From: Eukaryota sp. GEM-RC1
Lineage: Eukaryota
Direction of reading: 5' to 3'
DNA length: 64,000 nucleotides
NCBI GenBank assembly: GCA_040285855.1
Contig: JAUFOQ010000013.1
Span: 1,798,001 to 1,862,000 of the forward strand
The translations under genes and the position numbers were made by a program. The notes below the pieces were generated by a model that was not told where the DNA came from, ran no database searches, and saw only the letters and a program-made list of their open reading frames with translations. This document shows positions 17,905-61,254 of this stretch, one piece after another (the stretch's first letter is position 1; each line of letters starts with the position of its first letter).

Positions 17905-18449
17905 AATAACTTAAAATATTAGGAGTTCATCATAATTTTCTCTTTGAATAAAAAAGGCTAATAAGTCAATTTCTAGTTCGATTTGTAACTAACTTGTGGA
18001 TCTGTAAGATGTCCAGAAGTTGTTCATGTACTGTAACTCAAAACTAGTTGGTCTTTGTTTCATTTGTAGTATAGAATAGTGTTACGAGAAACGTATCAAA
18101 ATTTGTCTGGAAACGTTTCGGGAACGTTTCCACGTTTCCGAAACGCATTTTTATGTGTTCAGTTCTCATTACTTCCTAATCGAATTTCTATCTTCCAAAA
18201 TTTCTAAAATATCAACACTCTCACTGTTTTGTAGTATGTCTCAACGACAATGATGAAGGTGAATTCGTTCAGATTGCAGACAGCGACGACTCTTCGTCAC
18301 TTTTCTCTCCCAGTGGCCGAAGAAAAGACTCTACTGATTACCTTGTGAGCACGGCCTCTTCAAACTGGATATACTATAGAATTTCTTTAATGTCTTCTGT
18401 TGTTCAATTTTGTATCGAATAACAAAAATCTGATGTTCAAAGATTAATA

Positions 18450-20214: not shown

Positions 20215-20329
20215 AAAGATTAATAGAAACTATCCAATAAAGACAAAACAAACATCCCGTTTGCTCGTCTCTTTGAACTTCTAGTACGAAGTTCTACTTC
20301 AGTAGTAGATAAGTTTTGTCCTATTAATC

Positions 20330-21630: not shown

Positions 21631-21870
21631 GATTCTTCAATAAAACAAAGAAATCTCGTGCTTACATTCTAGAACCAATATTTCTTGGCTTTATGAGTGT
21701 CCTATGGGACAGGGGATAGTCTATCCTTGTTAAACAACTTGTTTATTGAACATGTAGTAAAGTTCCATAATCCAGCAGTGAACGCTAACACGCAACTCAG
21801 CCTATGGTAGAAATTGATAGGAAAAGTGTTGTGACTGTTATCAACATGAAGCTACCATACGTCCGTTTTT

Positions 21871-24882: not shown

Positions 24883-25231
24883 AATTAAAGATTCGTTTAA
24901 GAAAGATCTGGTGAAAGTACAGTACTACTAGTAGTAAATTACTTCAAGAAAATTTATTGAGAAAGAATCCAATTTGTGAATCGGTCGTTTTATAAGATGA
25001 TAATTAGGTGTTGGTGGTCCAATAGTCTTATGTAAGCTTTTTGACTGGGACTTTTAAATACGTTAATTATGACATTCTAAAAGACATCTCAGAAAAATCA
25101 GCAACGTTTCCAACCTGTTTCCAAATGCAAACAAGCGGATTAGAACGTTTTTTAACCGTGTAACGTGGAAGTGGTTTTATGATCAACAAAATCTTCAGTT
25201 TTACTTCACTGTCTTTTAGTCCAAATATATA

Positions 25232-28329: not shown

Positions 28330-29862
28330 TGCTTATTGAAGTGAGAAAACAGAGTCTAAATGAAACGAACAACAATAAGATCAAAATAATATCGATCGAT
28401 ATTTGAAAAGTTGATACGTTAAATCTCTTATTCTGAGACTTATACAGAGATCCAAAATCAGTTAAAAACTGAGAAGCCATATCACCAATACTACCAAAAA
28501 TAGAAGTATCAAATAGTACACACAAATTCCGAATCCAAATTTTGATTGAGACCAACAACATCTTTGGAATTCAACAGTCTCTATTTAAATTTTCAGTTAA
28601 ACAAAGAGGGGGATCTTCATACTCCGTGGCTTAAATCATGATAAGCGTTAGCGGAGTTTACTTCAGTTGATGTTTGCAACAAATCTTGTGTTATAGGGAA
28701 ACCATAAGTCATAAGGATATTGGATTCTTCTTTTAATCCGCTAACAGCTGCTGAAAAGCTCAAACATCCCACGTACGACTCTCAAGTTGAAGAATTAAAT
28801 CGAATATCATATTCCATGTATATATCCATGTGCTAAAGTATATTTGAATTCAGTTTCGAGTGATACTGAAAATCATTTATCCAAAGCTGAAAAAAGAAAA
28901 ATTAGTACATATTCTGACACAATGATCAAACTAAATTCCAATTTGTATTCTTCTTTTAAGTTCATTCCTTTTGCTATTTCAATTCTTGGTAATATTGGAT
29001 TTGCTGCTGAAAAATTCTTTGATGCCTTTTCAAAGTTGTGCCGTGACCATAGGAAAAATTTTAATCCGTCCATTTGGCGCAATCGCATTGTTTTTTCCTT
29101 ATATAGAAGTTTTCCAAAGTATTTGAATCGTATTCGGGACAAATTGTATCGTGGTAGTTCAAGAGTAGATGTGGATCATTTAATATCTTTTAAGTACTGG
29201 TTGTTTGTATTTCGTTAATTTATAACATAAAATTTGTATTCCAAATTTGTGTTTCAACCTTTCGTTGTTTCTCTTTTGGATCTATTAGTCCCGCTAGTGA
29301 TCAATTCTTTCAGGGTTTTGAATAACTGTGTAAAGGAACGAATCAGAAGTTTGGAATGGCTGAATGTATTAACCGTATTGTGTTGTTCATTTATCGAAAT
29401 ATTCATTTCTATTTCTCTCGATTAGTTGAGAAACTTTACCACTCTGGTGTGAAGGTTAATGGTGTGAAGGAAAAACGTACTGTTTTACTGAATAGGATGA
29501 AGTCGTTTGAATTTGGTCTTGGTGTTTTACAAATCGTTTTTACAAATACAAACTGTGTGGCCATTTTATCGTTTTGGCCAAAAAGGAAGACTTGTTGAAT
29601 TGTTGTTGTTAGAAATCATTGCATAATTATAATCATAATCATTCGTCATTTTGTTTCAGAATTAGTTGTACTGTAGACAATGTCAGACCGCCTCATTGTC
29701 AAGCAGCCTTTTTAAGTAATTCTTCTTTTAGATCACAACTTACAATTGTTCGTGGTTGTATGGGAAAAGATACCATTTAGATCTATAGACGTCACTACTT
29801 TTGATTGAGAAACTGATTTCATAGTTTTGTAGGAAGGTTACCTTATTGGGTACCGAATAAAG
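28330..29862. mobile_element. Cluster of CRE-like 3' fragments (family D on -, families B, C, B on +)
   Basis: SIFGSIGDMASQFL.DFG (-, ~28400-28510); copy resembling 49980-50175 at ~28605-28815; FIPFAISILGNIG at 28844-29218; FVFQPF at 29234-29520; family B tail GTAGGAAGGTTACCTTATTGGGTACCGAATAAA at ~29829-29861. Confidence 0.75.
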
Positions 29863-32585: not shown

Positions 32586-32948
32586 ATGTTCCTTTTACTG
32601 TGTTCCTTTTCTCTTTGGTATTTTCAGCTTTTTTTTGCATCTTCTCGGTTGCTGTTTAACGAAACTGTGTCATTGGTAAGACATTCTCGAACATAATACG
32701 AACATTTTGAGATTTAGAAGTCTGACTGGTTTGTGGAGTTTTTGATGTATTTATATAGTTGCATTTTAGAGCTATATGTGAACCCAATTTAATAGTGACC
32801 TTAAAAGACGTGTGTGTAAGTTTTTGTTACAGTTTTGTCCATAAAAACACGTCGTTGAGTTGGAAATGTGGGATGAAAGTTCGAAACATTTACCATCAGA
32901 TGGATCATCCAGAAAATTCAACTCAAAACTCATGAACTTTGTATCAAA

Positions 32949-34537
32949 ATGGGACGTCTAGAAAACTTCTATAGTGTTCATCTAACAACCTTTACTATAC
33001 TAGGTATCCTTGGAAGCTTCCTCATCTACTTTTCTGAAAAGGAATGGGACTTTGTTGACTCCTTTTTCATGTCCTTCTCATCAATCACTGATACCGGACT
33101 CACAACAACTTCTTTGGAGTCTGCCAAGTTTTCCACTCGTATTCTAGTTCTCTTCTTACTCCAACTAGGTAGTCCTGTTCTATGGACCTTGGTTCCAGTC
33201 GTTATCCGACGTCATTTCCTTATCAACAACTTCAACCATCCTGTTTGTACCGCTTCTAAGTATCCCGAGGAAGATCCCTCAGCCCCACCTATCCACCTCA
33301 ATCCAATTCCTCTCTACAAATACTCTAAAGAATATTGGGCTATGTCCCGCCTCATAGTAGTTGTTCTTGCCTACACTCTCTTCCTCTACCTGTTTGGCTT
33401 TCTCTGTCTGTCCCTTCGCTTTGCTCTCTCCCCCCATGCTAGGTACGTTGCTGATCAAGTGGGAGGGTGGAAGTTCTTTACGATCTTTCACGTAATTTCG
33501 GCCTCAACTAACTGTGGAATGTCACTCTTCTCTTCTTCACTTACCCCTTTTAGAGACGATCCTTTCATTTTGATCCCTTTAATGATTTTAATCGTCTTTG
33601 GTCAGACTGGATTCCCTGTTTTTCTTAGATTAATCATAATCAACAGGTCAAAAACGTCACGATATCGTCCTGTGTACACTTTCCTTCTTCATCATGGACG
33701 TTCAGTATATACTCATTTGTTTTCTACAGTGGAAACGTCATGGCTGGCGTTCTGGTGGTTGATTTTCTTTTTGTTCAATTTGGAGCTATTTTGATCTTTG
33801 ATTTTGACCACATGCCTGTTTCGAATCCTCTTTTGAACACGTTTTTCATGACAATCTCGACTAGAGTCACTGGATTCTCTACGATTGATCTATCACACGT
33901 CTCCCCACCACTTCTTATTATTTTAATTTTGTTACAAATTTTGGCGGTAACTCCTTTTATTTCTGTTCTTAGAAGTTCTGAAAAGACTGTAGAATCGTTA
34001 CCAGAACCAGGAGGCATCAAATCAGCCCTTCGGAAGTTGATCTCCACTCAACAGTTAAATACCTGGGCACGTGATTTCTTTTGGGTATATGCTTCTTGGT
34101 TAACTCTTACTATTATCATTTATAAGAGGTTAGATGGCTGGTTTTTGTTCAATCTTTTATACGAAGTTTCCTCTTCCTACGGTAACATTGGCTTAAGTAT
34201 GGGTTATCCAAGCACTGAGAGCTCATTTGCTTCTGAAACTGGAACATCAGGGAAGTTCGTGTTTTGCTTACTAATGTTGGCTGGTCGGCATCGTGGTTTA
34301 CCTTCGGTTCTTGATCAAAGTGCTTCTACTTTAACTTTTCAAGGGTTGGCTCAGAATGTTCTGAATTTGATACCTGTGGAAGTTTTAGCAAAGATGAATG
34401 TTAAGGAAGCTAAGAAAGTTGTAGCTAAACCTGATCCGGAATTAAATCCCTTATTAGAAGTTTTAATTGCAGATTGTGATGCCAACAATACCGTGACTTT
34501 GACTTCAAGTCACAGTTACTTAACCTTTCCCCCCTAA
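32949..34537 (+). CDS. Trk/HKT cation transporter (one frameshift)
   Basis: Pore-loop motifs S.ITDTGL, SASTNCGM, STRVTGF, SSYGNIGLS.GY and GRHRGLP; one extra T at 33768-33772 joins the two ORFs. Confidence 0.9.
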
Positions 34538-34968
34538 AAGATTGACCAACGTCAGGGAACTTAGGAGATTGATGGGTAAAGATCGGACATCAATGACTTC
34601 AGTGAAGGATTTGTTTGGAAGTTCAAAGGTTAATTAATTGAAGGATCAATTATGGAAATCGTTGTTTACAGTATGATTTCCAGTGATTACTTTATTTGAA
34701 AAACATGTGTGTTTTGAAACTTTTTGATTGAGTACTTTTTATGTCCTTAATTCTATTAAGCAATATTCTTTCGAAACAATTCTCTGTATTTACCAAACTT
34801 CATCATTTTCTATTGTCATTAAACAAAAGTTATTAAACAACGAATTCATTCACAAGAATGCTTTGTTTAGTACAAAGTACCTGGACTATATTTCAATTTA
34901 TTATTTTCTCTCAAAGTATTGTAGTTTTTTTAAACAAGTGTAGTTATTTTTTTATGTACAATGTCAAC

Positions 34969-35638
34969 AAAAAAACGGGGTTTATGATCAGTCAGTGAAA
35001 TAAATGCATTTGCAGAAGTTAATAACTAATAGACACTAACTAAAATATCTAAACTATGATCCTTCTGTCCATCACCAAACAACTTACCTCAAAGTGAATT
35101 AAAATATCTGTACATTGAACGAAACAACGCAAACGCTAACCTACTCAACCAAAAATTTTCATTGAAAACTTTACCATACTCAGAACACAATTTACCAAAG
35201 GAGGTTAAAAAACCTTGTGCAGCTGGTCCAATATTACCGTATATCGACATCGCAAAAGGTTGAAACACAAAAGAATTGTACCTGCCAACATTCAATTGGT
35301 TAATTAAGTGACAGTACTTTGAATTTTTCCTTTTTCAGCCACTTCAAGAGCAGAAAAATCATCCTCAAAAATTTTGGAAATTGATCTTGAATTACAAGGA
35401 CCAACAGTCGTGAAATCCATGATAATTTCCTGACAAGATAACCAAGGGCCAATCAAATCACCACGACTTCTATCAACTTTTGGCTGATCAGAAAGATAAG
35501 CAAGTAAAGGTTCAATTTTTTCATGAAAACCATTAGCTTTAAACATATCCAAACATGTATCCCGGATACTGTTGTGAATAATTGACTGAAAATGAATAAA
35601 TTGATGACAGTTAACTAAATGATGAAAATTTGAACTTG
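34969..35638 (-). mobile_element. 5'-truncated CRE-like element, family A copy 2
   Basis: Near-identical to 18450-19115; 9-bp TSD AATGTCAAC (34960-34968, 35639-35647). Confidence 0.9.
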
Positions 35639-39584: not shown

Positions 39585-39764
39585 TGAGTCGACATTAATT
39601 GGAAAGAAATTCGACTGTGAATTTCATTCCGAATGCATAAGGGCATAACCCTTCACATTTTCATGATCTCATATAGAGCAAAACTCACAGTTTGACAAAT
39701 GTCTAAATTATTAGACAAATATCCTCATTCGCAAAGTCTTTTAAGACGAGCTAACTTCATAGAT
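39585..39764 (-). ncRNA. Candidate Fanzor omegaRNA (scaffold plus 3' guide)
   Basis: Immediately 3' of the Fanzor stop; hairpins at 39736-39747, 39700-39717 and 39639-39653, an 11-bp long-range stem 39680-39690/39615-39625, a possible pseudoknot 39726-39731/39630-39635, followed by a U5 run. Boundaries inferred. Confidence 0.55.
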
Positions 39765-42700
39765 TCAAGATTCCTGATCTTTCTGGTTTACGTGTGAGTC
39801 CTTGGGTACATCTTTCTTAGGCTTATTTGGACAAGTTGTTTTGTTATGTCCAGGTTGAAAACATATACCACACTTGTTAGGACCTCTGACAGTTGTTAGA
39901 GGACGCTTTGCTTTACCCTTACCCTTACTCACAGTCTTTTTCTTAGGAATCTGATCTGTATTCCCGCCATCCACGACAGGTGTTGTTTGAGATTTTGGTC
40001 TCTCGAGGATGGCAGGTCTACCTTGACCTTGAATGGTTCCATTTACAATATTATAAATATTGATAGCAGAATTGAAGTCTCTATTCCAGAGGACATGACA
40101 TTTAGCACATTCAACTAAGCCCCATGGTGAGACTTTTTTGCTCTTCAATCTTTCCTTCGATAATGGCAACTGTTTGGACCATTCATCATCAAAGTTACGC
40201 TCCACAATATTGTCTAATTGATTGTGTTCCATAATTTCCTTTTTTAATTCTTTCTCTTCCTTCTGTAACTTCTTCTTCCAATGAGGATCAGTGACTTTGA
40301 TCCCATCAGGATTGGAACAGATACCTTCGTCATTTCTGGAAACACATGCAGAGCAACATTTGCTGGTCTTAAATTCATCAACTAGGAACACTTTAAATCC
40401 AAATTTTCTTAATAATTTCCGAATTGAAGCACCTTTTACAGTAGATGCTTTACCTCTTCTTCGACGATAAGCAGTGTCGTTCCAGTCTCCATACCCAACA
40501 ACGACTTCATCTGAGTTTCCAAACTGGAGAGCAAATCTGTGAAGCATGTTTTTTCACTTCGTTCCTTTCTTGAATACTGTGTGAGACGATTCCGTCTAAA
40601 CCACTTTTCTTCGTAAATTCCTTCAGTATTTCTTTGATCAGTAGTGGGTGATCGTAATAAAGAACATGTAATTTCTTTGCCAAGAACAAAAGCAGAATAC
40701 TGAGTCAATTCACAAGATTTACTACCTGGCGAGTTAGAGCCCCATTGATCTAAAATTTGTTGCCCATTTATGTCAATGCGTCTGCCATCTGGACTGTGAA
40801 TAAATTGGGTAGAATATTGTTGTAACCGTTCGGATTCAGATAAACGGTGGAGATTATATCGTCTTATTTTCTTCTCCAGCTTCCTCTTCTTTCTCTTAGC
40901 TCTTTTTCTTTCCTTCCTTGTTTTTTCTTTTCCATGGAGACTTTTTAATATCGGCATTGCGCTCCCCAGCAGTGTATCTGAATACTTTCCAATCATCACG
41001 ATTTTTCAACTTGACAGTTGATGGTTTGTCAATAGTGGGTGCATCTTTCCAATCCTTCAATTCCTTTTTTAATTTTTTCAAGCTTCCTTTTTTCTTTGAT
41101 GATTTTGGAGAAATCTTTCTTCTTCTGAGATTGGCTGACGTATCGAAACCTTCGATTTCCTTTTCCTCCTTAGATTTTAAAGAAGCACAGTACATCAAAT
41201 CATGCTGATTAGGGTCAATAGCAACAATTCTTTTGGATTTCAACTTTAAGTTTTGAATTTCTGTGGAACTCAAAGAATCAATGTACCTTTCAGTAGCTGT
41301 GTAGTCAACTGCTTTCACCTTCTTATGAGGATTTCCTCTCCCATCAAGCAGATCTTTCCGCATCATCATTAAACTACAGCTAACTCCATCTGTGGAAATA
41401 GAACTGTATTTGAAGTCATGAGACAATGACTTTGGAAGACACTTTGGTTTCAAAACTGAGTGCCAAATGTCTTTTCGCACGTCATCATAGCTACCTTTAA
41501 TTTCTGATGCATAAACTTCTTTAAACCATGTAGTATCCAATCTGATATGATTAGGAATCAATGATTTTGTCAGAGGAAAAGGATTATTGGCAGTAACACC
41601 AGTACAAGAGTCTTCAACAAGACGTTTCAAATACACTGCATGACTTAAGAATTTCAAAGGATCTACTTTTTCAGCATAATAGATTGTTTTTTCCATTTTA
41701 CCTTCAAAAAAAGTAAACAAATAGTTAAAAAATAGTAAACTCAGTCTAGAATTGGGATCAGGAAACACTTCAACGTCTTAAATTAATTTTTGAAATTTTC
41801 CCATTAATGATCAACTGTCTGACTTCATTAAGCTTTGTACACAACTCTTGTCGTTGATTCTTATCAGTAAGCTTGTCAAGTCTATCTTTTTCAGGGTAAG
41901 CAAATTAAATACTTGAAAAACATGTTCGTGAAAGTGTTCACTCATGTTATTCTTGTAATTTGTAATAATTTCTGTTCCCATGTAATGCAATATACGAGAT
42001 AAACGATGACTACTGGGAAACACAATCCTATCAAGTCCAACAGATCGAGCAGCTAGTTCTAAACGAGGAATGTAATGAAACAATAAGTGTTGAGCAAACT
42101 GATTTTGAGTTGAGCCATCATTTGTGTTAGAAATTATGTTTGTTAACGACTCTTGTACAGTCTCAATATGATTCTGATTGTATACAAGTTTGTAGTCCCT
42201 AATCGTCATCATAGACAACACTTGTTCCATTGATTTCAACGTAAAAAAATTCTTCCAGTCTGGCAATTCAATTTTGGAAGTTTGAATTTTAGTCCAAAGG
42301 TCAGGTTCAGGTTCACCACTCGCATCTTCAATATTTTCTAATTTAACGGGAGGAGCAGTAGCATCGATAGACTCTGAATGTACATCTGTTTCTTCTTCAG
42401 TTGACTCATCTGTATCAGAATTCATTTCTTCCGTAACAGTTACATTTGGAACAGTAGCAGGCAGTAACTTCTGAATGTAACCTAAAATACCTGAATGGTG
42501 AAAATTATGAACAAAAAAATGTTTCAAAAAGAGAGTACTACGGACTCTTACTTGATGAGCTCTCTTAACACGAGATTCAATCATCCTAACCTTGGATTTC
42601 ATGATAACATTGTCCAGTCGTTTCTTAACCACTTTCATTGGTGACTTTGAACGTAATGTTTGCTTTTTGGGATCCAATAGGTCAGCCAACAAGTATTCAA

Positions 42701-45220
42701 TCAGAGGTAATTGTTGAATTGAGTTCATCAACAATAGCAGTCTTGTCGATTCCTTGGCCCAAAGTTCATTTACTTTCTCCAAATTTTTGACAAATTTCTT
42801 TTTAATCTTATCGACCTTCACTTTGGGATTGTCTGGAACTAAAACATTAATGCTGTCAATTATGCCATGCAAGTTTTGGACATTATTGACCAACTGAACT
42901 TCATCAAGATCAGAATCATGATTAAGTTCTTCCAAGCGTTTGACGGTTTCATTTTTAGAAAAAATATTTCATTTCAAGGAAAATTTGAACAACATTTTCC
43001 AAAAAACGGCCACCAGTAAAGACATAAAAATTCTTCAGTACAGCATTCAAATCGAGACTAAAAAACGGACCAAAAGTTGTTTCCTTACACCATTTGTTGA
43101 ACCAAAAGGGAATGTAGGGTTTAAATTCTGGAAAAGTAAACGTTGTATTGATTTTGAAGACTTGACAACGTGATGCAAGAAAGGGAAATGTATCTAAGTG
43201 AAAGTCATAACTCACAAACAATCGTGGACAATGTTGAGTAATGAAGGAAATGAAGTTTTTAAGCATACTGGATTCACTGTTTGAAATATGTAAGGTACAT
43301 AAATCCAAATTTGTAGTCTCAAAATTGCCATGGGAAAATAAGTGTTTTTCACTAAGGTCATTGTGATCAATGATCTGGATGGAAATTGATACAATCGGAT
43401 CAACAGAAGAATCACGTTTAACTTCTAATTGATCTTCAGCTTCACCTTCAACAGTTTCAATGTCATCATCATCTTCTTGAACAAGTTGAACATTTCTGCC
43501 ATTAATTCTTTCTTTTTTGGCAAAATCACTTTGAACATGAATTAAACAAAAAGTTGGTAGATTGTTCCAAAGTAGAGGGGATTTAAGAAAGTCTTGAATT
43601 TGTATTTCTTGTTCGATAGGCTCAGTGTGTAGATTTACTTCCATTTTATGAATTTCTTCTTGAATTGGCGATGGATACGACATAATGGAGGCCTGTGATT
43701 TGGGTGGTAGTTCAGATGGTGGTAATTCAGATGGCGATGGTAGTTCAGATGGTAGTACTTCAGATGATTCCAATGTGGACATACGGCGGTGAGTCTTTCG
43801 TATTGGAGTGTCACCAGTTGAAAAAAGGGAGCTGGTAGATCTAAATTTATTTCGTTTAATTAAGGGTGAACCTCGTGGTGATGGAACATCTGAAATTTTG
43901 GCTTTACTTTTTTTAGTGCTTAAACCAGTAGATGTTTTAGTGCTAGCAAGACGTGAACCTGTGAGAGGAATTGAAGTGGTTGGATGTTCTTTACCGGCAG
44001 GAGGTTGAATGGGTAACGATGGTACAATAGGAGCTACTGTGGTTTGACGTTGTTGTAGATAAAGTGTCCTTTGTTGAGACAAGACCTCCAGAATTTCTTC
44101 ACGAAATATGTCTGCTTGAAGTTCACTGTTCACTTGGATCAAATAAGTTTCCAAATACATCAGAGACGGAACATAGGCGAATCCTTTAAAAAGTTCAACA
44201 TATTTTTGAATATACGCAATGACATAAACTCCACAGTCGTTAGCAGACTGTCTTTTGGTCACAGGCACATAACGGAAAACATACCCCCATGGCACAAGTA
44301 CTTCGGATAATATGTCGACAGCTGGTTTTACCATAGACTTACTCATATCTTCGCTAGTTAACATTGGATCAATGAAGATCCATTCCTTCTCACAACAGTC
44401 TATAATGGCTAAACCCCAATGACAACCAGTGACACCTTCTCTGGAATAATTAGCATTTCTAGTCATCGTATCACTAAGGGGAACAAAGAGGTATTTGGAG
44501 TTTGTGATTTGATTTTTCTCAATTTTCGTCAACAACCATTGATCTAGCCGAAGAAGGGCATCTGGTGAAACAATATATTGAAGCAATGTGGTCGGATGGA
44601 TAAACATGCTTTCAAAGTCTAACTCTGCTTCTTGAAATATCACTTTACAGTACTCCACTATCGCTTCGTCATCAACCCATTGATTAGGATAAACTGAGTT
44701 TATGGCTTCTTGAGTTACGGGTCCTGGATTGGATTCAATATCACCATCAGCGGTGAGGTCTTTCGGGAACGGAGGATGGGAAGGGATAAACAGGGCAGAC
44801 GAGTACTTCATGGCAACAAATGTATGTGTTGATAAAACACAGAATGAACTGTCCTTATCTAAACTCAACTGAACCCAAAACCGTGCAATGGAGTCAGTCT
44901 CGAGTTGAGTAAGATAAGGACAGGATGGCGGCATCATCGAAGCAGCAGCAGTGGAGGGAGAAGCAACGGCAGTCATCACAGCAACGGCAGCGGAGGGAGA
45001 AGCAACAGCAGCGGAGGGAGAAGCAACAGCAGCGGAGGGAGAAGCAACGGCAGTCATCACAGCAACGGCAGTGGAGGGAGAAGCAACAGCAGTGGAGGGA
45101 AGAACTGTCCTTATCTAAACTCAACTGAGCCCGAAACCGTGCAATGGAGTCAGTCTCGAGTTGAGTAAGATAAGGACAGGATGGCGGACAACATCTGTTT
45201 GGATGTAGAACAAACGACAT
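39765..45220 (-). CDS. 2A - Ulp1/SENP8-like protease - PolB-exonuclease-like - Fanzor polyprotein (~1,800 aa; frameshifted in this assembly)
   Basis: Fanzor motifs T.YKNN..HF, FPL..S.IP.HIRLDT, STDGVSCS, RuvC-I AIDPN, YGDW, RuvC-II VDEFKTSKCCSAC, CAKC, RuvC-III WNRDFNSAINI. Protease W.DDE.I..Y, HWGL, FIDP, Q..NDCGVYV. 2A DIESNPGP. Pieces join by small indels at ~45100, 42959-42964, 41887-41891, ~41778, 40921-40926 and 40549-40554. Confidence 0.8.
44719..44760 (-). other. 2A-like StopGo peptide DLTADGDIESNPG/P
   Basis: Exact match to the D(V/I)ExNPG-P consensus, located directly before the protease domain. Confidence 0.85.
44845..45188 (-). repeat. Duplicated ~85-bp unit flanking 21-bp (AVASPSA) tandem repeats in the polyprotein leader
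   Basis: GAACTGTCCTTATCTAAACTCAACTGA...GATAAGGACAGGATGGCGG at ~44845-44931 and ~45102-45187; GGAGGGAGAAGCAAC repeats between. Confidence 0.9.
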
Positions 45221-45299
45221 TTATACTGTAGGAGGAAGGAAAATGAAATCCCACACAGACTGTAATGGACATGTGTGTGTCAATTCACGTGTTTAAAAG

Positions 45300-46258
45300 C
45301 ATAGCTGTCAAATACAAGTAACACCTGTTCTAAAAATACAAAAATACAAAAATACAAAAATACACATGCAAATACAAAAATACAAGTACTGTAATAAAAA
45401 ATGATTTAATAAGACACACTTTACTAAAAACACCAACACATGAAGTTGAATGTATGTCGATAAGCAAACACATGAAACATGGGATTATTAATAATGCTGA
45501 TACTACTTTCGAAAGTGATTCTTCCTCTTCTTGGAACACTACATTTCCATCTTGTACATTGTGCACTAGTCACAGCAACACTTAGTCTCACTTGAACTAT
45601 TTTACATTTCACGATGCTAGCCTCCAAACAGTTTAAAATGAAGTAAAACATAAATCAGTCCCGGTGAAAAGAATTTTCCACTGAAACTATTGATTGTGAC
45701 CAATGCAGTAACCAAGGATACCTGGTTTAACTTGTTATTCTGGTCGGAGAACAAGTAGACGAGGTGCATAGTTTAGGTGAATGATGTTCTATAATGACAT
45801 GTGGTAATGTATTGATAATCGCAACGATAATCACAACAACTGAATCACAAGTGTAAACTCCTCAAAAACGCCTATACTGCTATCTGATTGACTCCAAGTA
45901 CCAACAAAGACAGTTTGAGTTTGGCAAAATCAAAATTGAAAAAGATCAAAAGACAAAATCTCGATTAGTAGACGTAATTCTTATAAGTATACGAAACACT
46001 TGAAAAACAAAGTCTGGACAAAGTACCCACAACTGTTTCATTTACTATTACAAAGAAGTTTCGTATGTTTGGCTATCACCTTCAGAGTGACAAAGAACGA
46101 TAGTCAACCACTTTCTGTCAAAAAATACAAAAATACAAAAATACAAAAAAGCACATTGTTTAGACACGCTTGTATTTTACAAAAATACAAAAATACAGTG
46201 AAAATACAAAAATACAGTGAAAATACAAAAATACACTAATTTGTATTTTTCAGCTATG
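45300..46258 (-). mobile_element. Non-autonomous hAT element
   Basis: 8-bp TSD TTTAAAAG (45292-45299, 46259-46266); TIR CATAGCTG..AAATACAA; subterminal AAAATACA arrays; relic LSKVVSALLIIP...STSCVGVFSKVCLIKS resembling the hAT C-terminal dimerisation domain. Confidence 0.88.
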
Positions 46259-46559
46259 TTTAAAAGGAAATCTGTAATAAAGTCTATACCAGAATTTCCC
46301 ATGTCCTACTCAATCTTCAAACTCAGAAATACTTCTGAACAAGAAAGTCGTTCCCGTACCATCAAAACATATATGAAACTTGTTGTAAAGCTTGCTGATA
46401 AGCATGCAGTTAACTTGTCACTTGTTCTTCTTCCTTATGGAACATACAATTCTAAATCCATCCACATAACGGAAGTGTCAACATCTGACTTACCAGATGA
46501 TCTTAAAAAGGGTACCATGGATTTTTGTCTCAACCACAAATGAAGAAAACTACTCTAAC

Positions 46560-47110
46560 ATGTCTTCTTCTCCAATGAAGAGTAGCCGATCATGCAATGA
46601 TACTGTTTCAGTTGGTCACGTTATTGGTTATAAGAAGATCCCCTCTTCTACAACATCCTCTTCAAATTCTAGCTCTGATGTATCATATGCGTCATGCTCT
46701 CCTGCCCTTTCTTCCATCAACTCACTTGCGATTTCAACAATCCTTGTTGACTTTAATCCATCTTCGTTCTCTGAGTCGTTTGTTAGTACCATCTCTTGAA
46801 TGGAATCATATTAGGCATCCTAGTGTTCTCCTCACTTTAAAGAATGATATACCTGCGTTCTTTAAGAAACTTGGCTGGGTGAGTCACTATTTCTTTGAAT
46901 CTGCTCTTCTTGCAGTCAAGGTCTTTCTTCAAACAAACACGTTTCATATCATTCCTAAAGATCTTCCTCAACTATGTTCATTGACTTCTTTCTTTGGAGC
47001 AGAGGTTAAGTCTGTTTTCTTTCATATATCTGGATCGTTAACTGTTGATGAACTTTTCAATATTCCACCATAATTTCAGGATTGGAATTGCAATTGAATA
47101 CCAAATTCAC
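46560..47110 (+). pseudogene. Truncated LRR-family paralogue (N-terminal domain only)
   Basis: LRFQQSLL...IPAFFKKLGWVSHYFFESALLAVKVF.QTNTFH; frameshifted, no LRRs follow. Confidence 0.75.
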
Positions 47111-47668: not shown

Positions 47669-47963
47669 TCACCAAATGTTGTAGTTACAAATGTTGTCAT
47701 TACAAATGTTGTATCACCAAATGTTGTAGTTACAAATGTTGTATCACCAAATGTTGTATCACCAAATGTTGTAGTTACAAATGTTGTCATTACAAATGTT
47801 GTCATTACAAATATTGTCATTACAAATGTTGTATCACCAAATGTTGTCATTACAAATATTGTCATTACAAATGTTGTATCACCAAATGTTGTCATTACAA
47901 ATATTGTCATTACAAATGTTGTATCACCAAATGTTGTCATTACAAATGTTGTATCACCAATGT
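47669..47963. repeat. 15-bp minisatellite (~19 units)
   Basis: Variants ACAAATGTTGTCATT, CCAAATGTTGTAGTT, ACAAATGTTGTATCA in tandem. Confidence 0.92.
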
Positions 47964-49105: not shown

Positions 49106-50640
49106 CAGTGTTTGAAAACCACCCGGTGCCACTCACCACCCGGGTGGCGTCTGGGTGGTACTGGGTGGATAATTTTGGTCTTACCATCATCTTCAATCCA
49201 TGACTTCCTGAATACATACTTCGTTGTTCAACGTGTCCTGAATACAATTATTTTAACGGGAGTTATTTTTAGGATCGGAGAGGCTAATATCATCTTACTT
49301 ATTTATTTTTCAGAGGGTTTTTCTAATCCCAAACCTAAACAAAGTACTTCATTGTTAGTTATTTTATATCACACACTGCTGCTCGGTTTCCCTTGGATGG
49401 AATCAATCTGTTGAATTCCAGTAATTGCCGTTGGATTCAATCTGCTAAAGATTTGGTATCATCATTGTCTCCTGAAATGTGGGAATCTTTGTTCCCTGCT
49501 CATTTGAAGGAGATTCCTTTAAAAAATATTTCATCTATACCGTCTGCTGTATGTAAGCTGCAAAATAAATTGACAAAGAGTTTGAACTCTTGGACTTTAA
49601 TAATCGTATTAGCTTGGCTAAAACTAATAGTCCCGAGTTCGCTGCTTTTTTAATTGATCTTTGTAATAGTGGACCTTCTGGATTTATTTCTCAAATTTCA
49701 AAGGTGTATGGTTTACATCTATCTGATGAAGCTTGGATGATCAATATGCGTCTTCGTTTGGCTATTTGGCCTGCAAATTTATTAAACTATTCAACTTGCT
49801 CTTGTGGAGCTAATGGTGTTTTTCGTCATTTAATTAATTGTCGTTATTTTATTCATCTACGTGCAATAATTCATGATGGTGTACGTGATTCTTGTTATTC
49901 CATGTTTAAAGCACATGGTTTTCACTCTAAAGTTGAACCAGTTTTGAATCATCTTTCAGATAATGAATTTACTGATGAAAAAGAGGGGATCTACATACTC
50001 CGTGGCTTAAATCGAGTCAATCATTAATGGATTTTACTACAGTGGATGTATGTAACAAATCTTGTGTTAGTAGGATTTTAGATTCTTCTTTTAACCCGTT
50101 AACAGCTGCTGAAAAGCTCAAACACTCCAAGTATGACTCTCAAGTTGAAGAATTAAATAGAAACTCATATTCCAAATTTGTGTTTCAACCTTTTGCTGTT
50201 TCTCTTTTTGGATCTATTAGTCCTGCTGGTGATCAATTTTTCAAGGATTTCGAAGAATTGTGTAAAGAAAAGAAGCGTAAGTTTAGAATGGCTGAATGGA
50301 AAAACCGTATTGTGTTTTCCATATATCGGAATATGCCTTTCTATTTCTCTAGATTAATTGAGAAATTGTAGAAGTTTGGTGTGAAGGTTAATGTTGATAA
50401 ACGTAATCTTTTACCGGGTGGTGATGAAGTCGTTTGGATTTAATCTTAGTATTATTTGTTTGTTTTTACAATTTCATAGTTTGTAGGAAGGTTACTTTAT
50501 TGGGTGCCGAATAAATTTCACTGCTAAAGTACTTTCAGTTTCATTGTATATGGTGTATAAAGTAGTTTTTGCACCAAAACTAATGTCTCGTACTTTATTG
50601 CCACCCGGGTGGCGTCCGAGTGGAAAATTTTCGAACACTG
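49106..50640. mobile_element. Non-autonomous hAT element carrying a nested CRE fragment
   Basis: 8-bp TSD TTGAAAAG (49098-49105, 50641-50648); TIR CAGTGTT(T/C)GAAAA; subterminal CCACCCGGGTGG palindromes at both ends. Confidence 0.9.
49381..50518 (+). mobile_element. 5'-truncated CRE-like element, family B
   Basis: W.INMRLRL..WP, CSCG...HLINC, IHDGVRD, MDFTTVDVCN, FVFQPFAVSLFGSI; possible TSD CACTGCT (49374-49380, 50519-50525). Confidence 0.85.
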
Positions 50641-51237
50641 TTGAAAAGTGAATCTCCTTGATTTTTCTTTGAAGGAAATCAACACTAAATGCTGCCTACT
50701 GGTTAAGGTAGACTAAAAAGTTTGTAAAACTAAGATCCAGACTGATCGATCAAAACGTCCACATCCTCTTCACTCTCATCTTCTGCAACGACGTCCTTTT
50801 CCTCACTCTCCTCAGTCTCAAGACATTGTACACAACTAATCTCAGAAGTCATTTGTTCAGATTGGCTTCTGCTGAGAATAGTTGGCCTGGATAGCCCAGA
50901 TAACTTTGCCTTCATGATTTCCATAATGTTGATGCCTGAATTTGATTACTGTGGAAGCTTCGTCTATAGTACTGGCCCAAAGGCTTGCACTTATGGGAGG
51001 GTAGACTGTATATATAAGAACTTCACTACAATTCAATCTGTAAAAATATACCACTTCTTTTATTAGTAATTGGGTTGTTTGAGAAGGATAAATCAAGGTT
51101 TTACTACAGCATTCATGAAAGTTTCAAGTTTTTATTCAGTTCTAGTTTTCGTACTTGTCTTACTGATTAAAAACAACTGTTTACAGATAATGGGACAAAG
51201 ATACAAAGTAAAGGCTATGAAACACTAGTAATATAAT

Positions 51238-51500
51238 GTTTATTCGGCACCCAATAAGGTAACCTTCCTACAAACTATGAAATTGTAAAAACAAACAAAT
51301 AATAATAAGATTAAATCCAAACGACTTCATCACCACCCGGTAAAAGATTACGTTTATCAACATTAACCTTCACACCAAACTTGTACAATTTCTCAATTAA
51401 TCTAGAGAAATAGAAAGGCATATTCCGATATATGGAAAACACTATACGGTTTTTCCATTCAGCCATTCTAAACTTACGCTTCTTAAATAATAATAAATAA
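51238..51500 (-). mobile_element. CRE-like family B 3' fragment
   Basis: Reverse complement of ~50270-50515; 11-bp TSD AGTAATATAAT (51227-51237, 51501-51511). Confidence 0.85.
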
Positions 51501-51935: not shown

Positions 51936-54900
51936 CTAATTTTCAGAAAAAGTGAAAGAGCACAGAGGACAACGTCTACTATCACTCGCTTCGAACCATT
52001 TCTCAAGACATTTGGTATGCATTTTGTTCTTACAATTAAGACAGGATCTATTGGGCAGACTTCCATTTTCGTAGAAACAAACAGAATAACAAATAGAACA
52101 CATATCAGCGGAATCAAGATTCTCGACACACTTGGAAAGTACGATAATTGCAGAAATGACAGCAAATCTAGAATTATTTAAATATCCCAATTCTTCAGAA
52201 TTCAATCCAGAAACTTCTTCTTTCAAATCAGAAATGGATCCATGAATCTTCACAGCAGAATTAAGTAATAGCGACCATTTTCTAATTTCAGCTCTAGTAG
52301 AGTTCAAATCACAAGCAAACGTGACCTTACACGGACGTAAAGGGAAATCGTCAGGATAAGAGAAGAGGAATCGTCCAGAGTTCACAGATTCACCCTTCCT
52401 TTCAACTATTAGCTCAATTGAATGACCTGGGAGAGTGGAAAGTTTAAAGACAACATTGGGAGCTTTAATCAAGTGAATTACTGGAACAAGACCTATAAAC
52501 TGAGATTCTTGCTGGAAAAAATGTGTCGAGAACGAAGCTGAAAACACACGTGAAAGATATTTAAAATATTTAGGCAATTTGTTGACATACGATCGGAATT
52601 CCTGTAGATGTGAATGAATAACTTCTTCTAAAAGGAGAAGATATGCAAAGTTCGATGATTCCTGTAACAAAACAGGAGAATTAAACTCTAACAAAGGAGC
52701 AAACACTTCAAGTAGAGAAAAAATAATTTCTAAATTTTTTGAATCCAATACTTTAAGATTTTGGGATTGTTCAATTTTTGAATCAATTTTGTCGACAATA
52801 AGAGAAGAGCTTTGGAGTCAGAATCTATTTCAAAAGAATAATCAAAATCAAAAACTTTTTGGGAGGCTGCAAACTTAGCAAAGGAAATTTCAAATTCAGA
52901 AAACAGAAACTTTGAAGAAAATAATCTCCCTGAAATTAAAACAAATGATGACGGGAAAAATCTAGCAAGACTGGAAATATTCTTGACTGACGAACAATCT
53001 GCATCAATTTTCAATTTTTGGAGATAATTGGAAAAAACAATGTCAAAATCACTTGCAATTTGTTTGGTACCAGCAATAGCACTGACGTGACCAATGACGT
53101 CAGCAATGAGACTAATCAAAACAGGAAATATGTAGGAATCAAAAGTGATTGCTTCACTGAAACAATTAGAAAATAACTTCAAAACAATGAAACATTTAAA
53201 ATATGTCAAATCACTAACATCAATCGTTTCCAAGAAGAGTCGCAGAGATTTAAAACTAACATTTTCGTTTGCAAAAATGACTTTAAGCTGATCAAATGTA
53301 GACCATAAATTTAAATTTTGTTGATTCCAGCTACTTAAGCCAATAATTGACGATCCTGCTTTAAAACCGTCATGGTCACTTTTTAAACTATTAAAATTTT
53401 CAATATTATACATTTTGGAAAAACAGAACTGTAAAATTTTGAATTGGTGAGGCAGTAAAACAGAATTGGAAGAATCAGTGTTTTGATTGAAACTTTGATT
53501 GGCAAATACAAATGAGTGCACTAAATAGAACATAAAAGAATCAATATTGGTACGATCTAATACACTGTTTAGTTGCAAATTGAAATCCTCACATGGTTTG
53601 GCTTGAATTAAGTGAAGAATATGGGTTCCGAAAACAGTCAAAAAGCAATCAAAGAGCTCTTCTAGATTGACAAAAGGGAAGGACTGTCATTTTGATTGAT
53701 GAATAAAGCTAAGCCAATGTGACGGCTGAGATTTGATGAATCCAATGCAAATAGGAATGGTTTTGATTCAAATGAAAACAATAGCAGCAGGTCTTTCAAA
53801 AAGAATAAAGCCTGGTCGGAGATATTTGATTGACAATCTGAGAAGGAGGATACGAATTGGTTAATGAAATAACTGGCATCATTAACAGCAATCAGTTTTG
53901 ATTGATTGTCTAACAATGAGTCAAATTGAGGACCATAATCAGTACTGAGAATTTTAAAAAGTAGGAAAATGAAAAAATCAATCGTCTGATTGTCAAACTG
54001 ATTAATTTCATTACAATTGAGAAGAGAATTTAATATTTTGAAATATTTCGAAGGCCAACAACAGGTGTGGTGAGATTTCATTAAAACAATATAATCTGTG
54101 CAGACCGGAGGTAAATCGACATAAACCAAAAATTCTTCACAAGCAAGTACGTCATCATCAGTCAGCAAGTGGTCAAGAACACGTTTACAGAAATCAGAAT
54201 CCAGGAAATCAAAATTTAAACCCCGAATTAAATGAATTCTAGCAACTTTTAAATTAGAAAACAATGAAGCTATGTCCGAAAAATCATAGAAAGATTGTAA
54301 AAATCCTAATACAAATTTAAAATTTAGAGAATCAACAGATTCATTTGCAAAAAGTCGTTTAATAATTATTAAAAATTCTACTGACTGTTCCGAAGGCAAG
54401 GAATTAAATTCAGCATATTTAGCACTGATTTCATAGAAATTTGGTAACAAGAATGAATCAAAACAGAGCTCAGAAAACAAAAAAAGAGTTACCATACTTA
54501 CTTCATGAATATTTAAAAATGAATATTTCAAAAATGAACAAAATATAGCAGGGAATTGATTATAAAACTTTGAATTTTGGTGTGAGTCGTTCAAAAATTG
54601 TAAAAGAGCGCTACACAATTGAAATCCAAAACATCTTGAGCTAAAACATCAAACTCCAAATGACTTTCAAAAAACATGGAAAAATAATTTAACATTAAAT
54701 TATCAAAATCATCAGGAGAGGATTTCACTCCAATAACAATTAGAGAATCCTTAAAAGAATTGTACAAATCAATCACATTGGACCGTGATTTAACAGCGGT
54801 TATTTGTTGAAATTTTTTCAAAATATATTCAGACCACAGAAGAACTCCATGGAGAACTTGTTCCTTATAATTTGAATTATTCCAGAATTTTTTAAAAAGA

Positions 54901-55876
54901 GAGGAATTAGTTCACATGCTGTATCATCAAAAGCATCATTTTTAATAAATTCCAGGATTTTTGTAAAAACTTCGGAAGTTAATCCTCCCGGTAAGACCAA
55001 TAAGCAAGCTAATACTTCAGTAAACAAAGAATCCCTTGCTAGAAGATTTAAAAGTTTAGAAATTAACTTTTTGATGAACTTATCAACTGTTAAGTCCTGC
55101 CTCAACAGAAAATTCCAAAATTCCTGTGACATTATCAATTTAAATACAGAAAGTCGTAAATATTGGGGCATTGCGTGACCAATCAGTTTAAGTAATCCTG
55201 ATTGACTACCGGGATCAATCAGTTTTTCAATCAAATCCAATAACTGCCAACTATTTGAGTTTAGACATTCTTCTTCAGAAACACGTATAACCCAATTAAA
55301 CAGACCAACACCCATGTTTAAGGAAATAGCTACTATTTCAAAGGATTGTTCTTGAGACCATCCGTCGTTGAGAAGAGCAACGGAGGACTTTGAAAGGCAA
55401 GTGTTTAGGAAAGATTGAAAGTGTGAAAAGAAAGAGCTAAGTAGACGATCAGGGTGCTTGAAAAGGGAGGAGAAAGAAGATGACGAAATTCTGGCGACTT
55501 CACTTGACGGGTCAAAACTCAGGCCAACCCAAGGAGCAATGAAAAGAGGAAGAGCTGGTTTCAAATGTTGTTTGGGAAAGCGAGAGACTTGTTGGAGTAA
55601 CCGAGCAGTGTTGAGTCTAACACGGCTATTTGGGTCATGAACAAGGTGAGGAAGAACATTCTGAAGAGCCAAACAGAACGTCGACAGTAGTGAGGGTTCT
55701 AGAGAAGGTATCTCTTGACAAAGAGTCGTCAGAGCCTTTGCCCTAGTGATTTCACATCTTTTCTTAAGTTTTTGAAGAGGAACAGATATAGTTAGCGGGA
55801 GGTCGTCCGTAACAAGAGCAGAGTTTTGGAAGAACTGTGTTCCAGTAAGTAATGCAGCAGCATCTGATAGTTTCAT
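51936..55876 (-). CDS. LTN1: Listerin/Ltn1 RQC E3 ubiquitin ligase (four frameshifts)
   Basis: N-terminal L.KLKKR..ITR.KAL..L, L..DPNSRVR, PW....FDP..EVA; C-terminal RWD-like YP.DFPL and RING CSICYSV....GSLP...C..CKNK.H..CL.KWF..S....CPLC. Confidence 0.9.
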
Positions 55877-56456
55877 TGACAAAGATGGTGATAAAAGTAA
55901 AAGAATTTCTCATTCGGCAAAAACAGAAGCAGCTTCAAAAACTATACAAGCATACCCTCTACTATGCTTGTATTGGAACCTGCTTGTATTAGCGTCCATT
56001 ATATTTGTAAGATACTAATGGCAAGAACATCATCATTGTATTTCCATAATCCCAACCAATGTAAGAGTTTATTTGCAACAATTAATTAATACATACTAAT
56101 CCCAACCAGTAATCATTAAATTGCCCTGTCGATCATGAAAACCATTAAAAGCGAACCAAAATATGTGACAATCACTTGATCAAACAAGTTGTTCATTAAT
56201 CTCCTAACTGAACCAGTTCTAGGTAGGGAGTTCTCACAGTAGTTCTACCCTACTGTGAGAACAAACATAATACTGTGAGAACTAACGATTACGTTAGTTT
56301 AACAGTGTTGTAGCATGACGGCCTTAACTGCCATGAAAGATCAGAGATCAATCAGAACATGACCATAATTTAACTTCAAAAGAAGAGAACTGATAATTAA
56401 TATAATTTATTCAAAGATTAAAAAGAATCAGAATAAAACAAAACTAAATACTGTAT

Positions 56457-59028: not shown

Positions 59029-59064
59029 GAGCAATAAAGTTGTCAATTTTGTTTCGGTTCTGCA

Positions 59065-61135
59065 ATGAACCTAACAGATGAACAAGCTTCTGTCATTCAA
59101 TCTACTGACAATCCTCTATTCGTGAATGCTCTTGCAGGAACTGGAAAAACCGAAACATTATGTCAAACACTCATATATCATCTTTCTCACCACCCTTCTG
59201 CTTCCTTTCTTGTTCTTACTTTCACTAAGTCTGCCAGATCAGAACTGCAAAACCGTATATCTGTGTTACTCCAAAATCATGGATTAATCCAACACATGAA
59301 TCAATTTTCCATCACTACATACCATTCTCTGGCTCTGTTACATGTAAGATCTGAGTTTCCAAATTTTAAATTTTCTCTCCTGAGCACATCAGAATCTTTG
59401 GATCTTCTTTGTGACTGCTTTGATACCGCCATTGATAAACTAGAAGTCACAGATGCTGATATTGAGGTAACTGTGGCTTTGATTTGGAAAGTATATACTT
59501 TGGGTTCAGCCAAATTATTAAAATTTCTAACAATTTCTCGAGAAGTTGACAGTTTTCTGAATTCTTTGAATTTTGACACTTGTGCAAAAATTTGATTTTT
59601 AACACATTGAATTATTATCAGCACTTCAAATCACAAAACTATCTCCTGGATTTCGCTGACCTCTTGTTTGCGTGGCTCGAAATTTTAAAATCTCAATTAA
59701 GTTTGAATTCTAAACAGTCTTCAAATAATTTAAATTATTCAGTTATTGCGGGAGATGAAATCAATGACTCATCAGAATTACAATTACGCATACTCTCCCA
59801 TTTGTACAAAATCTATAATTTTCCAAGATTGTTTATTGTTGGTGATTGGAATCAGTCAATAATGTCTTTTTGTGGTGCAGACTTTCAGAATCAACTTTTA
59901 TTTTCTGATGTTTTCCCTCAACTGACCACATTGTACCTCACTGTCAACTTTCGCAGTTCTCCACCTGTTGTGAAGTTAGCCAATTCTATACTCACAAAAT
60001 TTAAAATTTTCAATAATTCGTCTAGTCCTCAACTTATCCCTTGCTATGTCAACAACGAACGGTCATTTCCACCGCCTTCGTTGGTTCTTCTCTTTGGGGA
60101 AGTTAGGGAAGCTTTGTTTGTGGCAGAAAAAATTAACAAGATTAAACAACGGTCTTCAGTTGTAAGTAACATTGGCGTTTTGTTCAGAGTTTCTCGTCAC
60201 TCTTGGATTTTAGAACTTGTGTTTAATCTCTATGGGATTTTCTACAACAAAATAAGTGGCCAGCAGTTTAAAGATACGGCGTGTGGGCTCTTCCTTTCAT
60301 CATTAATTGTTCTTTTGGATTTTTTTGAGAATTCAGTTTCATCGTTAATTGTTCAAAACTTTCAGTTGTTTACTGTTGAAAGCTCCTGGCAAATTTTAAT
60401 TTCTCATATTCCCAAACTTTCCGAAGATAAAAAAACTTGTCTTTTGAATAGACTTCGAGCATCACGGTGGATTCCTTCAATTGACAACAAAACCATTGAT
60501 GATGATCTACTTGTTTATATGAAGTGTTTTTCAAAAGTGAAACGCCAATGCTCTCAGAAAGTTCATTTTTCAAAAACATTTGTACTTTTTTTAAATATCT
60601 GTCACAAGTTGAAACTGAAGATTTGTTGTCAAAATTGTACTCTTTTTCTAATTTTTCAGCCATAATATCAAGGTTTCCATCTGCTTTTGAGTTGTATATT
60701 AAACTGAATCAGGTCGAGTTCAACATGTCTACCATTTCTGAAGATGATAAGGTAACTCTTTCTACAATTCACTCTAGCAAAGGACTTGGTTTTTCAACTG
60801 TTTTTTTGACTGGACTTGTTAATGGAAAGTTTCCGCTTATTTCCACAAAATTCAATCACATTACAGTTGATTTGGATGAAGAGCTCCGATTGTTTTATGT
60901 TGCCGTCACTAGAGCTAAAGTTTCTCTTATTTGCACTGTACCTTTGTCTGCTGATTATTGTCTTTCTTCATTTATTGATGAAATGATATTCCAAAATTTT
61001 AAATTTGTACCTCCAGCTAATTCGACTGAAATTATTAATATCACTAAGAGTATTGAGACTCATCTTTTGGATCCTAATAATCCATCCCTATTACTGAAAT
61101 TGAGAGACCTCGTGCAATTGAAAAGAAGCAATTAA
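59065..61135 (+). CDS. UvrD/PcrA/Srs2-family SF1 helicase (two frameshifts)
   Basis: A.AGTGKT, LTFT.SA..EL..RI, TYHSL, DE.ND, VGD.NQSI..F.GA, L..NFRS, STIHSSKGL.F, EE.RLFYVAVTRAK; junctions at A5 59586-59590 and T5 60527-60531. Confidence 0.9.
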
Positions 61136-61254
61136 AATTAAGGCATTCGATTAAACACGCGTGTTTTTAAACATTATGTTTTTACCACGCTTTTTTTGTG
61201 GAATGTGATCTTGAAAATCTCTTTCCAACCTTTTGTGATTTCGTCCTTATATTA

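Follow-up and report, generated by a model that had tools for sequence, protein, structure and literature searches.

A stretch of 64,000 nucleotides from the unclassified eukaryote Eukaryota sp. GEM-RC1 (GenBank assembly GCA_040285855.1, contig JAUFOQ010000013.1, positions 1,798,001 to 1,862,000 of the forward strand; termed the window) contains a Fanzor1 nuclease that is part of a large fusion. From the N- to the C-terminus, the chain comprises a repeat leader, a 2A peptide, a C48 protease, a spacer rich in Ser, Thr and Pro, a PolB-type 3'-5' exonuclease domain, the Fanzor1 part and a CCHC knuckle (Table 1). A Fanzor1 with this architecture is real and apparently undescribed. The domain order, the intact protease and RuvC residues, the in-frame fusion in other copies, the copy number and the mosaics between copies were observed directly. 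Fanzors are DNA-cutting enzymes, guided by RNA in the members studied so far. In the present family, Fanzor1 is fused with an exonuclease of the end-trimming kind and, in one lineage, also with a protease for ubiquitin-like proteins (Ubl).

All pieces of the open reading frame (ORF) lie co-oriented on the minus strand between 45220 and 39765, and six frame changes are required to join them. The joined ORF has 1,818 codons (about 1,820 aa) from the ATG at 45220 to the last codon at 39768, with the stop at 39765. A preliminary description of this DNA, made from the sequence alone, had joined the pieces into about 1,800 aa and proposed a fusion of 2A, protease, exonuclease and Fanzor. All pieces are indeed present and form one long fused ORF, but the protease is not part of the core, because the divergent relative P0116 has none.

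Homologues were gathered by three homolog searches and three cluster look-ups, with 15 of the 26 members of the largest cluster listed. At least 101 proteins named Eukaryota sp. GEM-RC1 and one named Eukaryota sp. TZLM1-RC were obtained. Among the matches listed, the 101 GEM-RC1 proteins form 90 locus-tag groups on 11 contigs; other copies and relatives, which the preliminary description had suggested looking for, are thus found at about 90 annotated loci. Proteins of subfamily A are 86-97% identical to the window copy, those of subfamily B 31-80%, varying by region. P0116 came from a search with P0015 against 1.84 billion representatives (best 150 of 204 matches listed). It encodes leader, 2A (DVEANPGP), spacer, intact exonuclease and full Fanzor in one ORF of 1,473 aa; neither a protease domain nor C-terminal zinc knuckles were found in its chain. 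Its identity over the C-terminal part of the Fanzor is 28%, and in a tree of 20 rows (kept from 45 candidates, the remainder being without the anchor motifs) it falls together with the window's family, on one side of a 100/99 branch. A multi-copy, mobile protist element is the likely source of these sequences.

Table 1. Positions of the element's features and of the adjacent insertion in the window.
Feature	Position	Strand	Basis or remark
Variable repeat leader	44743..45220	-	in frame with 2A in other copies; frame break at ~45100
2A (StopGo) peptide, G-D-I-E-S-N-P-G-P	44719..44760	-	motif match
CE-clan / C48 Ulp1-SENP-type cysteine protease	44083..44721	-	Pfam, triad, predicted structure
Ser/Thr/Pro-rich spacer, likely disordered; subfamily crossover point	43556..44082	-	copy comparison
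PolB-type 3'-5' exonuclease domain, all three catalytic motifs degenerate; holds the 42955-42969 break	42660..43555	-	Pfam, fold, profile
Fanzor1 (WED/REC/RuvC/zinc finger) with acidic and basic insertions	39990..42638	-	SpuFz1/PpFz1 alignment, motifs
C-terminal CCHC zinc knuckle	39831..39872	-	weak Pfam match, E 0.23
Structured 3' non-coding region, candidate omegaRNA scaffold	39600..39720	-	folding z -3.7
Separate MITE-like insertion just upstream	45300..46258		imperfect terminal inverted repeats, 8-bp direct repeat

Domains of the fusion

Pfam calls were judged against the curated cut-offs. Peptidase_C48 (25.2 bits, cut-off 20.7), DNA_pol_B_exo1 (30.4 bits, cut-off 23) and Cas12f1-like_TNB (the C4 zinc finger, PF07282; 34.5 bits, cut-off 26.3) all exceed theirs. 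The protease triad, already described as intact, is confirmed with His 44421-44419, Asp 44370-44368 and Cys 44235-44233, to which Gln 44250 is added as oxyanion residue. Triad and Gln are invariant across nine aligned sequences, down to 32% identity, and 28 of 29 other proteins in which the motif is visible retain the catalytic Cys. This retention argues for selection on protease catalysis.

The predicted structure of the protease (predicted local distance difference test, pLDDT, 86.6) has NEDP1/SENP8 as its top fold match (Foldseek E 2.8e-8; Z 16.6, root mean square deviation 3.3, 181 aligned residues). Fold and His-Asp-Cys triad are common to NEDP1/SENP8/DEN1 (PDB 2bkq, 2bkr) and the window protease at 16-17% identity. 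However, this match lies within 1 Z of ubiquitin- and SUMO-cleaving enzymes, the Ubl proteases together spanning Z 15-16.6. Since the enzymes for NEDD8, SUMO and ubiquitin are tied, the fold does not identify the substrate. Of the SUMO/NEDD8-type protease in the preliminary description, the CE-clan fold and the triad stand, and the substrate is conjectural. We infer that the protease could act on SUMO, NEDD8 or ubiquitin while tethered at the target.

A self-processing polyprotein had been offered as well, in which the protease would cleave the chain into protease, exonuclease and Fanzor products in the manner of viral CE-clan proteases. The viral enzymes do have the same fold, with lower Z (I7L 13.2, pS273R 12.5), and a Gly-Gly precedes the C-terminal knuckle in subfamilies A and B. 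However, neither the spacer between protease and exonuclease nor the interval between exonuclease and Fanzor contains a Gly-Gly, which argues against self-processing. The only one inside the exonuclease domain is shared with P0116, which has no protease, and the best fold matches are Ubl proteases. Hence, we regard self-processing as very unlikely.

The number of protease domains is zero in P0116, one in subfamily A and two in subfamily B. In the second Ulp1-like domain of subfamily B (P0024, P0025, P0026, P0052, P0054) His and Asp are kept and Ser occupies the Cys position; judged by these residues, it is likely a pseudo-protease. Presumably, 2A, exonuclease and Fanzor form the core of the family and the protease is a later capture.

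For the exonuclease, the model of copy P0018 (mean pLDDT 59.5) matches Pol delta best (E 1.6e-6) and also archaeal PolB. The corresponding stretch of P0116 is nearest to Pol delta by sequence, and the exonuclease bears the Atlas label PolB-exo. Exo I, II and III are intact in P0116 (FDVET, YNCDKFD, YCVND), but the DEDDy catalytic acids are not retained in the window, which reads HVQSD, YDFHLDT and, opposite YCVND, MNSIQQ. With all three motifs lost, the exonuclease of the window's subfamily is catalytically dead by sequence criteria. Among further variants of the domain in the family, the acids of Exo I and II are retained in P0126 and some acids are lost in P0121 and P0111, which shows a stepwise decay. 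YLLAD was considered as Exo III and dropped after the profile comparison with P0116.

The best solved-structure matches of the Fanzor part, represented by copy P0089, are the Fanzor1 proteins SpuFz1 (PDB 8gkh, E 1.7e-15) and PpFz1 (PDB 9cf0, E 2.3e-10; PMC10432273). Common to all are TDG in the WED domain (41393), D-P-N in RuvC, a shifted Glu just before the C4 finger and W-N-R-D. The RuvC D-E-D, also described before as intact, was located at D 41216, E 40376 and D 40079 and can be aligned with SpuFz1. Domain by domain, the comparison places the protease with NEDP1/SENP8 and the ubiquitin and SUMO proteases, the exonuclease with Pol delta and archaeal PolB, and the Fanzor part with Fanzor1. 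Fanzor1 is marked by DPG in RuvC-I and TDG in WED (PMC10711439); RuvC-I reads DPN rather than DPG here, a variant shared by SpuFz1. A long insertion separates the two Cys pairs of the zinc finger. Because of insertions, the spacing lies slightly beyond the Fanzor1 range D-X(125,275)-[TS][TS] (PMC3627910), with 283 residues in three copies and 281 in P0116; this range is descriptive and not a catalytic feature. Compared with SpuFz1 and PpFz1, the N-terminal 2A, protease and exonuclease and the C-terminal CCHC knuckle are additional. There is one such knuckle in the window copy, and there are two in subfamily B.

With about 960 aa for the Fanzor part and about 1,820 aa in total, the protein exceeds the mean Fanzor length of 620 aa (PMC10530073). 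At 105 distant loci (with, for the viral part, the best 80 of 127 matches) the Fanzor ORFs reach 821 aa at most, the median being 650 aa. None of these loci carries a 2A motif, and in none is an exonuclease or protease fused to the Fanzor; four matches to the exonuclease profile and one weak match to the protease profile are all in separate ORFs. The longest is a Fanzor-like ORF of 821 aa (L001-L003, 8153-10615) on viral-collection contigs of 339-733 kb. Fanzor1 evidently tolerates an N-terminal cargo of 600-850 aa, which is useful for editing tools.

Downstream of the ORF, the 120 nt from 39720 to 39600 fold better than shuffled sequences (z -3.7), with 3 of 179 background windows at -3.5 or lower, and give no Rfam match at the gathering score. 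Fanzor guide RNAs sit at the corresponding 3' location (PMC10530073). By position and folding, the region may be regarded as a candidate omegaRNA scaffold only.

At the other end, two 86-nt hairpin units (45102-45187 and 44846-44931; folding z -5.8) flank a 21-nt minisatellite (44939-45100) in the leader. The hairpins match no Rfam ribozyme, and the eight matches of the Rfam scan are all under the gathering score. Upstream of the 2A at least five distinct types of tandem-repeat leader occur among the copies. The 2A core DIESNPGP is encoded at 44742-44719. NPGP is found in 27 other proteins, the divergent P0116 included, and 26 of them keep the full D(V/I)ExNPGP, the remaining one having DTE. 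Ribosome skipping is predicted from this motif between G and P, although the 2A motif by itself is insufficient for skipping (PMC3708506). The leader may act as DNA or RNA, with the 2A removing the variable leader peptide and giving all copies one shared N-terminus regardless of leader. A polypyrimidine tract ending in AG (45226-45245, minus strand), 5 nt before the ATG at 45220, resembles a 3' splice acceptor.

Copies and continuity of the reading frame

The window copy changes frame at ~45100, 42955-42969, ~41892, ~41778, ~40930 and ~40550. For each site, all fetched proteins that span it were counted, excluding the window's own. Read-through was seen in 5/5 other proteins with the same leader start at ~45100, in 26/27 at ~42965 (the 42955-42969 break), in 4/5 at ~40930 and in 16/17 at ~40550. 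At ~41892 it was seen in 10 of 17, every one from subfamily B, whose proteins are open across 41892-41778. P0082, P0089 and P0090 run in a single frame over 41696-39768, and the intact, overlapping proteins P0037 (1,040 aa), P0015 (937 aa) and P0089 (644 aa) together tile the entire ORF. Furthermore, ten other proteins combine the Ulp1-like His motif and the Fanzor N-terminus on one chain.

Runs that are intact in the window are broken in other copies, at ~43517 in 5/15 and at ~42520 without read-through in 12/28. Host genes in the window are split as well (UvrD into three pieces, TrkH into two, listerin into four), and breaks per run of six or more are as frequent in the element (0.33) as in 11 host genes of our choice (0.32). 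Most frame breaks of the window copy are likely long-read homopolymer errors, and one or two may be real lesions.

The 42955-42969 break had been taken for the protease-to-Fanzor junction, with a T6 run as sole crossover and no nearby ATG in the downstream frame. None of this can be maintained. The profile of the copies is collinear with P0116 across the break (probability 98.6, 298 columns), which places it inside the exonuclease domain. The frame overlap also includes an A3 run (42969-42967), and in-frame ATGs are present at 42728 and 42638, the latter coinciding with the Fanzor start. Other copies read MNNFSK at this site, which a single added T does not yield.

Three further readings were considered. 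A GT..AG intron at 42553-42492 was rejected because both subfamilies conserve this stretch as coding sequence and it can be aligned with a REC helix of Fanzor. The 65-aa ORF at 40704-40510 was rejected as part of the protein. We consider a programmed -1 shift at ~41892 unlikely, since a second, opposite shift would be required 110 nt further on. Such shifts use a canonical slippery heptamer, and there is none at ~41892.

Three chains are mosaics of subfamilies A and B within a single protein, and leaders L2 and L4 are each found with both protease types. The mosaics fit copy-to-copy repair, but also template switching, ordinary recombination or misassembly. With P0089 as query, neither metagenome nor viral contigs yielded a locus.

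Possible mode of action and competing explanations

We lean slightly towards the view that the window holds an interrupted copy of a multi-copy element, whose 2A-released fusion would carry out guided cutting followed by copying through host repair, the attached protease removing Ubl marks. All steps are modelled on the precedent of Fanzor/TnpB, 2A and Ulp1. Upon translation of the transcript, the ribosome would drop the leader at the 2A and leave a protein of about 1,650 aa, which would take up a guide RNA derived from the element's 3' end. It would cut element-free target sites, and host repair would copy the element in. Ancestrally, the exonuclease may have trimmed 3' ends at the cut, as the intact domain of P0116 suggests; the dead domain of the window perhaps binds DNA. 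The protease would stay attached and, as an accessory that counters silencing or steers repair, strip SUMO, NEDD8 or ubiquitin off host proteins in the vicinity of the element or the break. As the ORF showed no transposase domain, new insertions would depend on a transposase supplied in trans or on cut-and-copy as such. Homing through break-stimulated recombination is described for TnpB (PMC10690162) and has been proposed for Fanzors too; their role for host transposons in eukaryotes is considered still open (PMC10530073).

A bolder version appears unlikely to us. Here, a transposase-free element would spread by RNA-guided cutting alone, its 2A-released protein finding the site, cutting, trimming (in the lineage with intact exonuclease) and stripping SUMO or NEDD8 on site, whereupon the element would be copied in through host repair. 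If true, this would mean that a programmable deSUMOylase/deNEDDylase-nuclease and an exonuclease-Fanzor exist in nature.

Several observations weigh against an interrupted copy of a working fusion. No chain runs from the protease to RuvC-III, the longest one with protease having 1,098 aa, and the ATG at 42638 is a possible start of a separate Fanzor. All seven subfamily-A proteins that reach ~41892 break there, some of them maybe one locus called twice, and none of subfamily A spans ~41778. All five tested proteins of subfamily B end at the same position downstream of RuvC-I, past GSLKK/RSLKK. More than one homopolymer slip is required for the 42955-42969 change. Relative to length, the element has 1.1 breaks per kb and the host genes 0.38 (Poisson P 0.02-0.04, with the same 11 chosen genes), and short introns could account for some breaks in the host genes. 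Ordinary recombination or misassembly could produce the mosaics, and neither terminal repeats nor a target duplication can be demonstrated at the window copy.

Alternatively, subfamily A, the window copy included, could be split or dead through real, shared lesions at ~41892 and ~41778; only other lineages would then possess the working fusion. The shared ~41892 break, the dead exonuclease motifs, the excess of breaks by length and the copy-specific change at 42955-42969 agree with this. On the other hand, the ~41892 break falls in an A run, the alternative frame behind it can still be clearly aligned to subfamily B, catalytic residues on either side are kept among copies 86-97% identical, and host genes show the same type of break. 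We consider a split or dead lineage quite unlikely.

Another explanation is that the element is a passenger of non-long-terminal-repeat (non-LTR) retrotransposons, copied from RNA by a reverse transcriptase in trans; 2A, protease, knuckle and hairpin leaders would then be parts of the retroelement type. Ulp1 domains are present in NeSL-type elements. Module swapping is consistent with template switching, and the window contains further ORFs that we presume, from a YADD motif, to encode reverse transcriptase. In the 2A-bearing non-LTR retrotransposons L1Tc, Ingi, L2, Crack and CR1, G-D-(V/I)-E-x-N-P-G-P likewise stands early in one long ORF, 40-80 aa from its beginning (PMC3708506); in several of our copies the 2A is 65 aa from the Met. 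Unlike in those elements, no Pfam domain for reverse transcriptase or for an apurinic-like (APE) or restriction-like (RLE) endonuclease was found in any piece or copy scanned, and the cargo is a Fanzor. Moreover, no 3' or 5' sequence is common to the element and the presumed retroelements of the window, whose reverse transcriptase label was not confirmed by Pfam and PDB searches. The 3' end of the element has no visible poly(A) or short tandem tail, and the absence of a ribozyme match for the leader hairpins also speaks against a passenger. This explanation is therefore rather unlikely, and the 2A motif occurs here in an element without reverse transcriptase.

Among known systems, MCi-2 of Mucor circinelloides and CRe-1/2/3 of Chlamydomonas are likewise multi-copy Fanzor1 elements with a variable or truncated 5' part and a conserved 3' Fanzor region, and MCi-2 is without recognisable terminal inverted repeats. 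A fused protease, exonuclease or 2A is not reported for them in the accessible text (PMC3627910), whereas the variable leader described here is translated and bounded by a 2A. KAONASHI/VANC Ulp1 of plant Mutator-like elements without terminal inverted repeats is another captured Ulp1 on a transposon protein, anti-silencing in effect and of unknown precise function (PMC13317346). Its targeting proceeds by recognition of protein motifs, whereas the Ulp1 of the window is joined to a Fanzor nuclease.

A Fanzor fused to 2A, Ulp1 or PolB exonuclease is not described in the accessible parts of PMC3627910, PMC10711439, PMC10530073 and PMC10432273, the domain survey in fig. S1B of PMC10530073 and part of the supplement of PMC10432273 lying outside the search. 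The same is true for the accessible parts of PMC3708506, PMC13317346, PMC6338049, bioRxiv 10.64898/2026.09.24.754024 and PMC10690162, and for the literature-search listings. In the Spizellomyces locus file (PMC10432273, supplementary file 6) the ORF SPPG_05489 carries the label 'dna pol'. The natural variants, with intact or dead exonuclease and with zero, one or two proteases, together with about 90 recombining copies make homing, end processing and anti-silencing separately testable.

Surroundings of the element

Between the presumed ends of the element only 7-9-mer matches were found; the direct repeats there, no longer than 7-mers and few in number, were attributed to chance. The 959-bp insertion upstream resembles a miniature inverted-repeat transposable element (MITE), which we take to be hAT-like. 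It is flanked by the 8-bp direct repeat TTTAAAAG (45292-45299 and 46259-46266), carries AAAAATAC subterminal repeats and seems to interrupt a plus-strand frame that resumes at 46259. It is likely not part of the Fanzor element.

The gene content of the window is eukaryotic, with V-ATPase H, an adaptor sigma chain, Rad52 and leucine-rich repeat (LRR) genes. A scan for sigma-70 promoters, which are not relevant to a eukaryote, stayed at chance level. Split host genes with overlapping frames lie at 59038-61135, 32877-34537, 51936-55909 and 22746-24924 (UvrD-like helicase, TrkH transporter, listerin and one other), and the splits are probably assembly errors. Several copies of the element resembling non-LTR retrotransposons, with ORFs similar to reverse transcriptase, are located at 18446-20293, 34966-35623, 28699-29464 and 49569-50396. 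A pair of inverted repeats of 246 nt, 98% complementary and 723 nt apart, occupies 50270-51484, and P0078 gives a weak tblastn match between its arms. A tandem array of ~808 bp and a 15-bp minisatellite are present at 61248-64000 and 47673-47963. Finally, the LRR genes at 2052-3173, 15955-17904, 20524-21636 and 46579-47073 form an expanded family with a shared N-terminal region.

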